A DNA stretch of 32,000 nt from Ignicoccus pacificus DSM 13166. GTDB lineage: Archaea; Thermoproteota; Thermoprotei_A; Sulfolobales; Ignicoccaceae. Positions 2,695 through 12,235 of this stretch are shown here, piece after piece. Both the position numbers and the translations under genes were made by a program. The notes under the pieces were generated by a model. The model was not told the DNA's origin. It was given only the letters and a program-made list of their open reading frames with translations, and searched no databases. The stretch is from contig CP006868.1 in NCBI GenBank assembly GCA_025340205.1, forward strand, positions 1,020,001 through 1,052,000, in the 5' to 3' direction. Within the stretch, counting starts at the first letter, position 1. Each line of letters opens with the position of its first letter.

Positions 2695-3313
2695 CTTAAG
2701 ATATAGCTATAAGAACAAGGAGGTATTAAAGGGAATTAGTTTCAAGCTGGCTAAAGGAGAGAGATTGGTGATAGTGGGTCCTAATGGAGCGGGGAAGAGC
2801 ACCTTACTCAAGGTCCTAATAGGAGCCAGGAAGGGAGAGGGGAGGATAGTGATGTGTGACTTAGTGGTGCAAGACGAGAAGATCTTCATACCTATAGAGA
2901 AGAGATGCGCTGCTTACGTCCCTCAGGGAAGCGGGGTCTTCCCCCATAAGACCGTACTCGAGAACCTGAGGATTGCTGGAAAGGAGAGGGACGAGAGCGA
3001 GTTAGTAGAAATGGCGAGAGTGCTGGGATTAAGGGAACTAGACGTTAAGGCCGGAAAGCTCTCCGGTGGACAGAAGAGAAGGCTAGCCATAGCTATGGCC
3101 TTAGTTAGCAACAAGAAGATAATTCTGCTCGACGAGCCTCTGGGAGCTGTAGATCCAGCGTCTAGAGGTGAGATAGTCGACGTTATCAAGGAACACACAA
3201 GAGACAGGGGTGTAGTATGGGTCACCCACTTGAAGGACGTAGTGGAAAGGGTTGGGGGCAGGGTTTGTAAGATGGAGGGAGGAAAGCTCTTGGACTGTGA
3301 GGAAGAGCTTTAG
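2666..3313 (+). CDS. ABC transporter ATP-binding protein (short form, no C-terminal TOBE/regulatory domain)
   Basis: Walker A GPNGAGKST, signature LSGGQKRRLAIAMAL, Walker B ILLDEP. An alternative GTG start at 2675 lies behind the SD GGAGGTGA (2662-2669). Confidence 0.88.
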   Translation: MSSVLLKVSDLRYSYKNKEVLKGISFKLAKGERLVIVGPNGAGKSTLLKVLIGARKGEGRIVMCDLVVQDEKIFIPIEKRCAAYVPQGSGVFPHKTVLENLRIAGKERDESELVEMARVLGLRELDVKAGKLSGGQKRRLAIAMALVSNKKIILLDEPLGAVDPASRGEIVDVIKEHTRDRGVVWVTHLKDVVERVGGRVCKMEGGKLLDCEEEL

Positions 3314-3349
3314 GACTGAACCGTGATGACGGATCAACCGTCCGAGTCC
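3292..3349 (+). ncRNA. Candidate C/D-box sRNA (2'-O-methylation guide)
   Basis: Layout: GGAC-t-GTGAGGA (3297-3303), 12 nt, CTGA (3316-3319), acc, GTGATGA (3323-3329), 12 nt, CCGA (3342-3345), GTCC. The box order is canonical, both spacers are 12 nt, and a 4-bp terminal stem is present. The D guide CGGAUCAACCGU pairs with CGGUUGAUCC, the 16S 5' end. Confidence 0.5.
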
Positions 3350-3804
3350 GTTATCTTGATCAAGCAGTCGTTTCCATACCTTCCGCAACTTTCTACCTTC
3401 ATAGTGAGGGTGGCGCCAAGGACGCCGTACCTTCCAGAGGGAGCTATTACCTTAACCTTCTTTCCGCTGAGACCCTCTACCAACCCTGCGCATAGCGCTA
3501 TCGGAAGGACGCACTTGTTTGGAGTTAGAGATTTAATGTTTGCTAATGGACAAGATTTCAGCTTTATCTTAATTTCCTTGTAGTCCTTCTCACAACTCAC
3601 AAGATGATCTCCATAGAGTTTCTTGGCGATATCGCAGAAGTCCCCCTCCTCCATCTCTTTTGCGTAATCCCTACCGACCTCTTTGAATGTCTTGAACAGT
3701 AGTTGCTTTGCCGAAACGTCGCCGATGATCATCGAGAGCTTGTCTAAGAGGGCCTCTAAGACCCCTCTCTCGATCATTCCGAAGAGATGAGCTTCGCTGG
3801 ACAT
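3334..3804 (-). CDS. V4R-like (4-vinyl reductase domain) small-molecule-binding protein, hypothetical
   Basis: The C-terminal pattern C...G.VEG...ESCGRYGNDCLIKI resembles the V4R C-terminus. It is similar in layout to the ORF at 18525-19046. Confidence 0.45.
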   Translation of the reverse strand: MSSEAHLFGMIERGVLEALLDKLSMIIGDVSAKQLLFKTFKEVGRDYAKEMEEGDFCDIAKKLYGDHLVSCEKDYKEIKIKLKSCPLANIKSLTPNKCVLPIALCAGLVEGLSGKKVKVIAPSGRYGVLGATLTMKVESCGRYGNDCLIKITDSDG

Positions 3805-9104: not shown

Positions 9105-9461
9105 TTGTCGGCTAGCTACAGACACGTGGGAGTGAGGGGGGTCGAGCCCCCTAAGATAGCTTGCGATGACCCCGAGTGCCCCTGGCACGGTCACTTGAAG
9201 GTGAGGGGCACTATCCTCGAGGGGGTCGTCGTAAGGAAGAGGATGCAGAAGGCAGTGGTAGTGAGGCACGAGTACTTGTACTACAACCGTAAGTATCAGA
9301 GGTACGAGAAGAGGAAGAAGAACATCCACGCGAGGCTCCCTCCTTGTCTAGCTAATGAGATCAAGGAGGGCGACATGGTGGTGATCGGAGAGACCAGACC
9401 TTTAGCTAAGAGCATAAGCTTTGTTGTCCTAGGTAAGAAGGTAACCGGAGGTGAGAAGTAA
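9105..9461 (+). CDS. rps17: 30S ribosomal protein uS17 (S17P)
   Basis: [22 protein letters not shown] and MQKAVVV....Y..KY.RYEKR are typical of archaeal S17. TTG start, and the stop overlaps the L14 ATG (TAATG). Confidence 0.9.
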
Positions 9462-9874
9462 TGGTCAAAGCGACGGCGACCAAATCTAGGAGAAAGATAG
9501 TAACCGGACTTCAAGTGGGAAGCTACGTTAAGGTAACCGACAACAGCGGAGCCAAGCTTGCGATGATCATAGGCGTTCCCGGCTACCACGGAAGGCTGAG
9601 GAGGATACCTCCAGCCGGAGTGGGCGACATGGTGGTCGTCACCGTCAAGAAGGGAACCCCCGAGATGAGGCACCAAGTGGTAAGAGCGATAGTGGTGAGG
9701 CAGAGGAAGCCCTTCAAGAGGCCCGACGGAACTTGGGTCGCCTTCGAGGATAACGCTGTAATCATCGTCAACGAGGATGGATCCCCAAAGGCCTCGGAGA
9801 TCAGAGGTCCCGTGGCCAGAGAAGTCGTGGAGAGGTGGCCCAGAGTAAGCAACGTGGCCAGCATAGTGGTGTGA
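9461..9874 (+). CDS. rpl14: 50S ribosomal protein uL14
   Basis: [17 protein letters not shown]...[16 protein letters not shown]...AIVVRQRK is typical of uL14, and the gene sits at the conserved operon position. Confidence 0.95.
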
Positions 9875-9884
9875 GGTGATAGGA

Positions 9885-10265
9885 ATGCCCATGGTTAGGT
9901 CTAAGAAGCCTTCCAAGCAGAGGAAGTTCTACTTCAACGCCCCTCTGCACCTAAGGCACAAGTTCATGAACGCGCCGCTGAGCGAGGACCTCCAGAAGAA
10001 GTACGGCGTGAAGAGGCTCCCAGTGAGGAAGGGAGACACTGTGAGGATACTCAGGGGAAGGTTCAGGGGACACGAGGGAACCGTTGCTAAGGTAGATCTG
10101 AAGAAGGCCAGGATATACGTGGACGGAGCCACCATCGAGAACAGCAGAGGCGAGCCCGTTTTCTACCCCATTCATCCATCCAAGGTTGTTATTGTGAAGC
10201 TTGGTAACGTGGATAAGATCAGGGAGAAGATAATTAACAGGAGGAAGAAGGAGGTGAGTGAGTAA
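9885..10265 (+). CDS. rpl24: 50S ribosomal protein uL24
   Basis: [17 protein letters not shown], a KOW motif ([21 protein letters not shown]) and the conserved position. ATG 9885 is preferred to GTG 9876. Confidence 0.9.
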
Positions 10266-11032
10266 TGGCAAGAGTAGGAGGAGGAAAGAGGCACCTGAAG
10301 AGGCTAGCTGCCCCGTTCTTCTGGCCCATTCACAAGAAGGAGGCAGTATGGGCGGTAAAGCCTAGGGCTGGCCCCCACCCACAAGAGGAGAGCCTACCCC
10401 TCCTAGTGGTAGTGAGGGACGTCCTCAAGTACGCCGAGACCTCCAGGGAGGCGAGGAAGCTAATCGCTGAGGGAAGGATCAAGGTAGACGGAAGAGTTAG
10501 GAAGGACTATAAGTTCCCCGTGGGCTTAATGGACGTCATCGAGATAGTGGGAGCGGACGAGTACTACAGAATGGTACCCTATCCTACCAAGTACCTAATA
10601 CCCTTGAGGATAGACGCCGAGGAGGCCAAGTACAAGCCGGTTAGGATAGAGAACAAGACCACCGTAAAGGGAGGTCATATACAGCTGAACTTGCACGACG
10701 GTAGGAACATACTAATCAAGGTGAGCGATCCCAGGAGCCCCGTGGAGGCCGAGCAGTACAAGACCCTAGGAACCTTGCTCATAACCGTTCCAGAGCAAGA
10801 GATCAAGGAGTACGTGCCCTTCGAGCCCGGAGTAATCGCCATAGTGAGCTCCGGTAGGAACGTGGGTAGGATTGGAAGGATAGAGGAGATATCCGAGAGG
10901 CTCGGAAGGAAGAAGACCTTAGTGAAGATGAGAGATGTAAACGGAGAAGTTTTCTACACCGTGGCTAGCTATGTGTTCCCCATAGGTAAGGAGGAACCCA
11001 TAATTAAGTTGCCCGAGGGTGGTTGGAAGTGA
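10265..11032 (+). CDS. rps4e: 30S ribosomal protein eS4 (S4e)
   Basis: [27 protein letters not shown], an S4 RNA-binding segment and a KOW segment. Its ATG overlaps the L24 stop (TAATG). Confidence 0.95.
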
Positions 11033-11616
11033 GCGCGGAGGTAGAGGTCAAGTCCCTAGAGGTACCCATACCCCAAGAGAAGGTGAAGGAGATACTGGAG
11101 AGGTGGGAGAAGCAGCCGATGCTCAAGCCGAGGCTAGCCAAGGTAACCGTCAACATAGCCCTAGGAGAGAGCGGAGAGAGGCTGGAGAAGGCCTACAACT
11201 TGCTCCAAGAGCTGACCGGTCAGAAGCCCGTGAAGAGGGCTGCTAAGAAAACCATAAGGCAGTTCGGAATCAGAAGAGGAGAGAACATAGCGGTCATGGT
11301 GACCCTCAGGGGAGAGAGGGCTAAGGAGTTCCTGAAGAAGGCTCTAGAGGCGGTCAACTGGAAGATTAAGGCTTCCAGCTTCGACGAGTTCGGGAACGTG
11401 GGATTCGGAATAAAGGAGCACATCCAGATACCCGGAACTAGGTATGATCCTAGAGTAGGAATATTCGGAATGGACGTCATACTAACTATCGAGAGGCCCG
11501 GCTACAGGGTCGCCAGAAGGAGGAGGGCTAAGGCTAAGATACCGAGGAGGCACAGAGTGACCAAGGAGGAGGGAATGGTATTCCTAGCCAAGGAGTTCGG
11601 AGCTAAGATCATATGA
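11023..11616 (+). CDS. rpl5: 50S ribosomal protein uL5
   Basis: [36 protein letters not shown] and FGIKEHI.IPG..YDP..GI.GMDV are uL5 motifs. TTG 11023 or GTG 11029 could be the start; the GTG overlaps the S4e stop as GTGA. Confidence 0.92.
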
Positions 11617-11656
11617 TTATATGCTCCCGTGAAAGCGGAAGTGGGGGTGTGAAGTC

Positions 11657-11821
11657 ATGGCGAAGTTCAGGCCACCAAAGTATAGGAAGTTCGGCAGGGG
11701 AGCCAGGAGGTGTCAAAGGTGCGGAAGCCAAGACGCCATCATAACCAAGTACGGGCTCTACCTCTGTAGGCAGTGCTTCAGAGAGGTAGCTCCCAGCATG
11801 GGCTTCAAGAAGTACAGGTAA
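11657..11821 (+). CDS. rps14: 30S ribosomal protein uS14, zinc-binding (type Z), 54 aa; below the ORF-track length cutoff
   Basis: My own translation is [54 protein letters not shown]. It has CxxC...CxxC, the SD GGGGGTG upstream, and the canonical position between L5 and S8. Confidence 0.9.
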
Positions 11822-11833
11822 GGGGTGAGAGCA

Positions 11834-12235
11834 ATGGTAATGTTGGATCCCTTGGCCAACGCTTTGAACACCATTTATGCCAATGAGGTTAGAGGCAACA
11901 AGGAAGCCATAATAATGCCCGCCTCAAAGCTGATAGCTAACGTGCTAAGGGTGATGCAGAGAGAGGGCTACATCGGAGAGTTCGAGTACATCGACGACGG
12001 AAGGTGGGGCAAGATAAGGGTTCAGTTGCTGGGAAGGATAAACAAGTGTGGAGCGATTAAGCCTAGGCAATCCCTAAGCTACAGAGAGCTCCTAAGGCTC
12101 CCCGAGTGGGTGAGGAGGTTCCTACCCTCCAAGGACGTGGGAGTGCTCATACTGAGCACCCCTCAAGGCCTCATGACCCACAAGGAGGCCATAGAGAAGA
12201 GGGTAGGAGGAATAGTGTTGGCTTACGTGTACTGA
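11834..12235 (+). CDS. rps8: 30S ribosomal protein uS8
   Basis: [16 protein letters not shown], the [15 protein letters not shown] motif and [14 protein letters not shown] 11834 or 11840 is preferred to GTG 11825. Confidence 0.93.

Follow-up and report, generated by a model that had tools for sequence, protein, structure and literature searches.

The small RNA that stands closest to the subject of this paper has already been described. In Ignicoccus hospitalis, the box C/D small RNA (sRNA) IHOsR155, which reads CGGC-G-ATGAAGA-CGTGCTTTAGGTCG-CCGA-AAAACTA-ATGACGA-GGGATCAACCGG-CTGA-GCCG (Dennis et al. 2015, PMC4644070, Additional file 1), was detected by RNA sequencing with a coverage of 1200 (Dennis et al. 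2015, BMC Genomics 16:632, PMC4644070). More broadly, in archaea, 25% of the genes for C/D sRNAs reach into the 3′ end of an open reading frame (ORF) and take in its stop codon, and only ~20% have a promoter of their own (PMC7994747). Here, we have focused on one short element in a stretch of 32,000 nucleotides (nt) from Ignicoccus pacificus DSM 13166 (contig CP006868.1, positions 1,020,001 to 1,052,000; this whole 32-kb stretch is "the window," and positions are counted from its first letter): what is the element at 3292-3349 on the plus strand, and what might it do? We are highly confident that it is an archaeal box C/D sRNA of ~58 nt. Judged by its guides and its genomic place, it is an ortholog of sR155, and an RNA gene of the window that had been unannotated is now annotated. 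That the fuller account also holds, with the sRNA derived from an ABC-transporter operon and its D guide directing methylation of U8 in 16S rRNA, we regard as quite likely.

Along the plus strand, the element runs from the 5′ half of a terminal stem, GGAC (3292-3295), through a single U (3296) to a C box, GUGAGGA (3297-3303; consensus RUGAUGA, with G at nt 5), the 12-nt D′ guide AGAGCUUUAGGA (3304-3315), a canonical D′ box, CUGA (3316-3319), the 3-nt D′/C′ linker ACC, which is the kink loop (k-loop; 3320-3322), a canonical C′ box, GUGAUGA (3323-3329), the 12-nt D guide CGGAUCAACCGU (3330-3341), a D box, CCGA (3342-3345; consensus CUGA, with C at nt 2), and finally, the 3′ stem half GUCC (3346-3349). 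The two stem halves pair, and a fifth, U-G pair is possible between T3291 and G3350. This is the layout of boxes, spacers and stem given in a preliminary description of the window, and each part of it was confirmed in its place. The dimensions are those of an archaeal box C/D sRNA (spacers of 12 and 12 nt; 58 nt from stem to stem), and the internal D′/C′ pair is of the expected kind, canonical CUGA and GUGAUGA lying 3 nt apart. Within the C/D kink turn (k-turn), the G3-A4/G3-A4 positions and the G6-C1 pair are intact, and the two deviant positions face each other as G-C. Two other ways of parsing the boxes, with the GUGAUGA at 3323 as a C box for a downstream D box or the CUGA at 3316 as a D box for an upstream C box, were ruled out, there being no acceptable partner box for either.

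We scanned every position on both strands of the window for RTGATGA-N10-13-CTGA-N3-8-RTGATGA-N10-13-CTGA. The candidate departs from this pattern at 2 of 22 box positions and is the sole site, on either strand, with three or fewer mismatches; in 300 dinucleotide-preserving shuffles, matches at two or fewer mismatches never appeared, and those at three or fewer came to 0.017 per window. A relaxed, Ignicoccus-style consensus again returned this site alone (100 shuffles gave no match), and the minus strand of the window held no C/D layout in either scan. Together, the scans and shuffles exclude a chance origin of the layout. The comparison with Rfam C/D models that had been proposed for this element was also run: in E-value mode, sR9 (RF01312) and sR14 (RF01145) align with it end to end, over 3293-3347(+), at E ~3e-4, below the gathering thresholds. 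These are full-length alignments, yet the guides differ, and the likeness is essentially one of boxes and spacing. At gathering thresholds, Rfam matched nothing anywhere in the window. Minimum free energy folding of 3285-3356 gave z = -0.96, a value that says little, as one would expect for a k-turn RNA that is scaffolded by protein.

The nearest homologs of the ABC ATPase whose gene ends inside the element (~50% identity) lie in an NCBI metagenome-assembled genome, GCA_054016855.1 (L001), and in a hydrothermal-vent metagenome contig (L002). In both loci, the element is found again where this ATPase gene ends, and the order solute-binding protein, permease, ATPase, (sRNA), Mre11-like protein is common to all three loci. 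The L001 element reads uGGGC-g-AUGAAGA-cgaGCUUUAGGg-CUGA-agag-AUGAUGU-gGGAUCAACCGu-CGGA-GCUCa and that of L002 GGGGC-c-AUGAGGA-aauGCUUUAGGu-CCGA-cgagucu-AUGAGGA-aGGAUCAACCGc-CUGA-GCCCC. sR155 shares the ATPase C terminus and stop with L001 (...GDEDVL-TAG and ...GDEDEL-TAG, respectively), and the window element has what places it in the sR155 group, namely the same guide pair at the same ABC-ATPase 3′ end. The two Ignicoccus RNAs are alike in box order, in the guide cores GCUUUAGG and GGAUCAACCG and in the terminal stem, whereas sR155 differs in having a D′ spacer of 14 rather than 12 nt, a canonical CUGA D box and a 7-nt D′/C′ linker (linker length ranges from 3 to 7 nt across the orthologs). 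The two cores, GCUUUAGG in the D′ guide and GGAUCAACCG in the D guide, do not vary among the four orthologs. Over the element, the three loci are 71-76% identical to one another, and over the adjacent 60-nt blocks, 45-60%, about the level of globally aligned unrelated DNA. The alignment of related loci that the preliminary description had called for thus shows boxes and guides conserved beyond their flanks and beyond coding, which supports reading the element as a C/D sRNA.

The paired parts behave as paired parts should. The terminal stems of the four orthologs are GGAC/GUCC, GGGC/GCUC, GGGC/GCCC and CGGC/GCCG, with 94.7% of the cells paired and two pairs changing on both sides. When the 5-bp stem is taken together with the two k-turn pairs, 92.6% of the cells are paired; sliding the 3′ partners by one to three columns lowers this to 19-48%. 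With no more than four sequences to compare, three of the seven pairs already differ on both sides. What, then, of the two off-consensus boxes? The C boxes of the orthologs are AUGAAGA or AUGAGGA and their D boxes CGGA, CUGA and CUGA, and the pair formed by C-box nt 5 and D-box nt 2 is G-C, A-G, G-U and A-U in the four sequences. The substitution in the window had earlier been called a compensatory G-C; the pair does indeed covary, but the purine in the C box needs no compensation to explain it. In each of the four orthologs, C-box nt 5 supplies the wobble base of a Glu codon (GAR), and for that reason, it is always a purine and never U. The D box is a different matter, because C3343 (D-box nt 2) is the third position of a minus-strand Ser codon, where U in place of C would leave the protein unchanged; CCGA is not imposed by coding. 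C boxes of the form AUGARGA and CCGA D boxes are, in any case, common among the expressed sRNAs of I. hospitalis (Dennis et al. 2015, PMC4644070).

The functional reading hangs on the D guide. For the target scan, the N+5 rule was applied to an I. hospitalis 16S row assembled from the alignment of Dennis et al. 2015 (PMC4644070), which begins ACUCCGGUUGAUCCUGCCGG. The D guide is complementary to CGGUUGAUCC at 16S positions 5-14, with 10 contiguous Watson-Crick (WC) pairs and the N+5 nucleotide at U8, which is E. coli U13 in that alignment (offset +5); the same pairing is obtained on the 16S of a Desulfurococcus rRNA operon (L020). The earlier guide arithmetic was correct, both in its unbroken run of 10 pairs with CGGUUGAUCC and in putting N+5 at the first U of GGUUGAUCC, and the target that it placed at the 5′ end of archaeal 16S is present in I. 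hospitalis and in 16 Desulfurococcales genomes, all 16 of the 16S genes compared carrying CCGGTTGATCCTGCCGG. The motif is essentially universal in archaea. Every ortholog selects U8, by 10 WC pairs in the window, 10 plus a G-U in L001, 11 in L002 and 11 plus a G-U (16S positions 4-15) in sR155. Shuffling the guide gave 10 WC pairs in only 11 of 5000 cases, and the next-best sites of the D guide offer five to six in 16S and seven in the Desulfurococcus internal transcribed spacer (ITS) plus 23S. Dennis et al. ask for at least nine consecutive WC pairs covering N+5 (PMC4644070); on the 16S of its relatives, the window D guide gives that many with the N+5 nucleotide paired, and so does the D guide of sR155 on the same paper's 16S row.

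We therefore consider it likely that the D guide acts on the 16S 5′ terminus, and we lean toward an action that includes methylation of U8. Coding does not account for the guide: it is invariant in L002, which has no convergent ORF, and at least 64 complete C/D sRNAs from unrelated genomic settings, described below, carry it too. It is independent of the coding frames. The assignment of 16S U8 to the orphan sR155 is new. Guides to the 16S 5′ terminus are not unprecedented, since Dennis et al. 2015 already predict guides to U12 (Methanopyrus kandleri sR23) and to U15 (an sR19 entry, apparently of Pyrobaculum calidifontis); these likewise target the first 15 nt of 16S but differ in register, U12 and U15 as against U8. 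The string GGATCAACC occurs once, in sR155, among the catalogued sRNA sequences from seven species (Dennis et al. 2015), and a literature search for the guide string returned unrelated primers only. A 26-mer from I. hospitalis 16S, GATAACACCGGGAAACTGGTGCTAAT, matched Desulfurococcaceae, Thermogladius and assorted bacterial 16S and no Ignicoccus record.

The D′ guide is far less persuasive. Its best matches in the window version are nine WC pairs to a variable-region site of I. hospitalis 16S (A565) and eight to the universal 16S segment GGGCCUAAAGCG (A530, ~E. coli A572); the best on the ITS plus 23S of L020 is six. A possible 23S target, CCUAAAGC, is absent from the seven-species 23S alignment. 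The preliminary description had seen no target for this guide. A tRNA-Arg(CCU) anticodon arm is a further conceivable candidate. The D′ guides of sR155 and L002 fit GGGCCUAAAGCG better, with eight WC pairs and flanking G-U. The core GCUUUAGG is also found in Thermosphaera-type homologs, where the sRNA is intergenic, which makes it a feature of the RNA and not a by-product of the ABC C terminus. From these comparisons, we infer that the Ignicoccus D′ guide is a shortened or eroded version of a Desulfurococcales guide, our class 2 below, against the GGGCCUAAAGCG region; in I. pacificus, it is a weak second anchor at best. A variable-region 16S site reading UCCUAAAGCUCU would, if real, give it a 12-bp target.

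How widely is the D guide spread? According to the literature, a guide seldom stays the same past the level of genus or order (Lui 2018; Dennis 2015, as summarized in PMC7994747). We searched Joint Genome Institute (JGI) metagenomes with TGANGNNGGATCAACCGNCNGA, which all four orthologs match; the counts from the resulting loci (L086-L205) are lower bounds. At least 47 matches are complete C/D sRNAs with the guide at the D position (two or fewer mismatches in the additional C and D′ boxes), and ~17 more, among the matches listed, carry it at the D′ position, for a total of at least 64 complete C/D sRNAs where our own estimate of the chance expectation is ~1.5. The contigs of the matches listed range in GC content from 0.33 to 0.63. 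Examples are L119 1712-1760(+), L138 730-778(+) and, on the minus strand of L177, 2330-2380 along the reverse complement. By partner guide, four classes can be told apart among the matches listed. In class 1 (16 loci), the partner GUUCAGCCUUGG and its variants give 9-11 WC pairs to 16S GCAAGGCUGAA, on the 3′ strand of helix 27 (h27), with N+5 at ~E. coli G902. Class 2 (~10 loci) carries (A)GCUUUAGGCC(U), ACUUUAGGCCG or GGUUUUAGGUCG against the universal GGGCCUAAAGCG, with up to 10 WC pairs. Classes 3 and 4 have three loci each: GUACUUUCCAGG faces 16S CCUGGGGAGUAC on the 5′ strand of h27 (12 pairs, two of them G-U), and guides to GCUAUCGGGG face the 5′ strand of h3 (~8 WC pairs).

The lineages involved are not close neighbors. 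The class-2 contig L178 is Thermosphaera (SerRS 98% identical), and the class-1 contig L138 is nearest Candidatus Methanomethylicia, at 83%. Among cultured archaea, Desulfurococcus mucosus DSM 2162 also carries a member. Retention of the same guide from Desulfurococcales to Methanomethylicia-like archaea is unusual when set against a literature in which guides seldom outlast a genus or an order, and besides the target assignment, this breadth is what is new here. Rfam at gathering thresholds, run on 20 metagenome loci with related sRNAs, reported tRNAs only. The D. mucosus homolog (CP002363.1; L209 ~9200-9260, minus strand) reads GTGATGA-21 nt-CTGA-gcg-GTGAAGA-gggatcaaccgg-CTGA; it has the same D guide and a 21-nt interval from C to D′, with either a degenerate D′ half or a D′ box elsewhere. 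The SerRS neighborhood of Desulfurococcus amylolyticus has no sRNA at the place occupied in D. mucosus.

In the window, the element sits astride two gene ends. On its left is the ABC-transporter ATPase gene IPA_05955 (2666-3313, plus strand; 100% identical to the I. pacificus DSM 13166 protein; stop TAG at 3311-3313), the final gene of a solute-binding protein/permease/ATPase operon, and on its right a convergent Cys-rich ORF of 156 amino acids (3334-3804, minus strand; stop at 3334-3336). The preliminary description spoke of an overlap of two convergent gene ends: the element does overlap both ORFs, but the ORFs do not overlap each other, being separated by a 20-nt gap that holds the D′ box, the linker and the C′ box. 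The element takes up 22 nt of the ABC ORF, that is, 19 nt and the stop codon, where 17 and the stop had been counted, and the 16 nt given for the convergent ORF are right, stop included. The last codons of the two ORFs contain the terminal boxes that deviate from consensus, as well as the outer portions of the guides: the ABC stop codon (UAG, 3311-3313) is part of the D′ guide and the convergent stop part of the D guide. In other words, the C-terminal codons and stop codon of the ABC ATPase double as C box and D′ guide, and the odd conservation of two protein-gene ends is explained by codons and stops that double as sRNA boxes and guide. The tail of the convergent ORF, TDSDG* (five non-conserved codons), overlaps the D guide, the D box and the 3′ stem, and its homology to the L001 protein (47% identity) ends at CLIKI/CIISI, five codons before the stop. 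The label "V4R-like" once attached to this ORF finds no support, Pfam giving no hit of any kind and the L001 homolog only a sub-threshold one to MetOD1 (methanogen output domain 1). The L002 locus lacks the ORF, and its D guide and D box are non-coding, with the guide core unchanged and the D box canonical.

On reading the sequence upstream of 3292, we saw no A/T-rich promoter-like element, and the ABC-operon transcript is the probable host from whose 3′ end the sRNA is released. In this scheme, the sRNA would be transcribed as the 3′ end of the operon mRNA, and the transcript would be trimmed to the segment that L7Ae, Nop5 and fibrillarin protect on the C/D k-turn and the C′/D′ k-loop. The D guide would then pair with nt 5-14 of nascent pre-16S, fibrillarin would 2′-O-methylate U8 by the N+5 rule, and while bound, the guide would keep the 5′ strand of helix 1 and the central pseudoknot single stranded. 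The gene-end overlap is like that of the archaeal C/D sRNA genes that overlap ORF 3′ ends (Tripp et al. 2017, reviewed in Breuer et al. 2021, PMC7994747). The window sRNA is unlike them in two ways: its stop codon lies in the D′ guide, where theirs is most commonly in the C box, and its 3′ part additionally overlaps the tail of a convergent ORF.

Several facts weigh against this account, and it is fair to set them side by side. The terminal boxes, GUGAGGA and CCGA, are each off consensus at one position, and the Rfam scores fall short of gathering (29.6 bits against 36 for sR9; 22.9 against 38 for sR14). The D′ guide reaches a maximum of 8-9 WC pairs at any rRNA site tested. Evidence of expression comes from the I. 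hospitalis ortholog, and the target of the D guide was read from the 16S of relatives. sR155 is tabulated NP/NP, with no predicted target for either guide (Dennis et al. 2015, PMC4644070), and we found no experimental report of a 2′-O-methyl group at 16S U8 for any archaeon.

What else might the element be? One could suppose that two gene ends, under coding constraint or by accident, merely spell box-like motifs; after all, the C box, D′ guide and D box overlap codons, and C-box nt 5 follows a Glu codon. We give this almost no credence. None of the 300 shuffles matches as well, neither of the canonical boxes, D′ and C′, is in coding sequence, and the protein tails that are overlapped are the non-conserved parts. 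In L002, moreover, the D guide and a canonical D box persist with no convergent ORF beside them, the terminal stem covaries, and the I. hospitalis ortholog is expressed; these sequence comparisons effectively refute the idea. Very improbable, too, is a C/D sRNA in form only, in which a k-turn/k-loop module that binds L7Ae at the 3′ end of the ABC operon mRNA would help to stabilize the mRNA, define its 3′ end or control translation, with the guides along as passengers that have no targets. The element does, to be sure, form part of an mRNA 3′ end, and no promoter of its own can be seen; L7Ae is reported to bind k-turns in mRNAs (PMC5539422), and Dennis 2015 lists no targets for sR155. Passenger spacers, however, would not keep 10 invariant nucleotides while their flanks are ~50% identical, they would not give 10-11 WC pairs to 16S in the correct N+5 register, nor would dozens of unrelated C/D sRNAs, set in other genomic surroundings, share this guide.

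A third possibility, which we judge quite unlikely, keeps the C/D sRNP as real and changes its main job to base pairing: like U3, it would act as a chaperone at the 16S 5′ end, holding the 5′ strand of helix 1 and the pseudoknot open or tethering it to a second core strand until assembly proceeds, and methylation would be incidental or absent. In E. coli 16S rRNA, h1 is 9-13/21-25, h2 is 17-19/916-918, h3 is 27-37/547-556, and h27 is 885-912. The target nucleotides of the D guide are the 5′ strands of helix 1 and the central pseudoknot, and the class-1 and class-2 partner targets adjoin the 3′ strands of h2 and h3. On these helix assignments, the D guide covers exactly the nucleotides that form helix 1 and the 5′ side of the pseudoknot, and the partner guides among the matches listed fall on structurally adjacent strands: the 3′ strand of h27, shortly before the 3′ strand of the pseudoknot (16 loci), GGGCCUAAAGCG on the 3′ side of helix 3 (~10), the 5′ strand of h27 (three) and the 5′ strand of h3 (three). 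Chaperone roles have also been proposed for long-range double guides (Dennis 2015, Lui 2018). Yet a role in chaperoning alone does not sit well with the N+5 register, which is strictly conserved in the orthologs and in nearly all of the metagenomic members listed (xGGAUCAACCGx directly followed by the D box), as selection on a methylated nucleotide predicts. The second guide of I. pacificus, at 8-9 bp, is too weak for a convincing tether, and no archaeal snoRNP (small nucleolar RNP) with a modification-independent role is known (PMC8339473). Our preference thus stays with a D guide that directs methylation of U8, and the two roles are not mutually exclusive.

The box A/A′ of U3 pairs with the 5′-terminal segment of small-subunit rRNA that forms the central pseudoknot. 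U3 avoids premature folding of the pseudoknot, and no U3-like RNP is known in archaea (PMC8339473). The likeness is that of a box C/D-class RNA pairing with 5′-terminal small-subunit rRNA, and it is a matter of analogy, not of membership. U3 differs in its boxes (A/A′, B, C, C′/D), in the pairing of its hinge to the 5′ external transcribed spacer and in lacking a methylation guide function; it is ~200-300 nt long and essential for cleavage, whereas the window element is a minimal 58-nt dual guide with a conserved N+5 register and no match to the Rfam U3 model. For I. pacificus, the chaperone/U3 analogy is speculative, with the pattern of metagenomic partner guides as indirect support, and for the wider guide group, a tethering or chaperone role is, by analogy, plausible. 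The analogy comes from the long-range double guides (Nanoarchaeum equitans sR17 and sR15; Pyrobaculum sR2, sR53 and sR56), whose two guides face rRNA strands that are distant in sequence and near in structure. The Thermosphaera-type and Methanomethylicia-type relatives fit this pattern, whereas the second guide of I. pacificus is weak; combinations of the 16S 5′ terminus with h27 or with the 570 region were not found in the double-guide literature that we examined.

One might go further, and here, we do so tentatively. It is rather unlikely, to our minds, that there exists a widespread, unnamed archaeal C/D group in which a near-invariant guide, GGAUCAACCGG, clamps the 16S 5′ terminus, the partner guide holds a central-core strand, and the RNP times or templates formation of the pseudoknot and helix 3. 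If it did exist, the clamping RNP would be a functional analogue, conceivably even an evolutionary forerunner, of the eukaryotic U3 role. Helix 1 and the central pseudoknot are built from the bound segment, which makes the group a concrete, testable candidate for an RNA-guided folding step of the archaeal small-subunit core.

Some smaller observations remain. The window also holds a cluster of ribosomal-protein genes (L14, L24, S4e, L5 and S8) at 9461-12235(+), and the synteny downstream differs from that in L001 and L002. A fibrillarin gene lies ~8 kb downstream of the sRNA in both L001 and L002, and there is none in the window. In two Desulfurococcaceae/Thermosphaera rRNA loci, L016 (~6216) and L026 (~2395), both on the plus strand, a sequence like that of the 16S 5′ end, GGGTTGATCCCGCGG, is found a second time, ~475 nt upstream of where the 16S really begins. 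The 16S genes of these two loci align in several separated pieces, and the 16S of Desulfurococcus sp. in L020 (1543-3220; 1678 nt) has an insertion of ~180 nt near I. hospitalis position 505; the insertion and the split alignments are probably rRNA introns.

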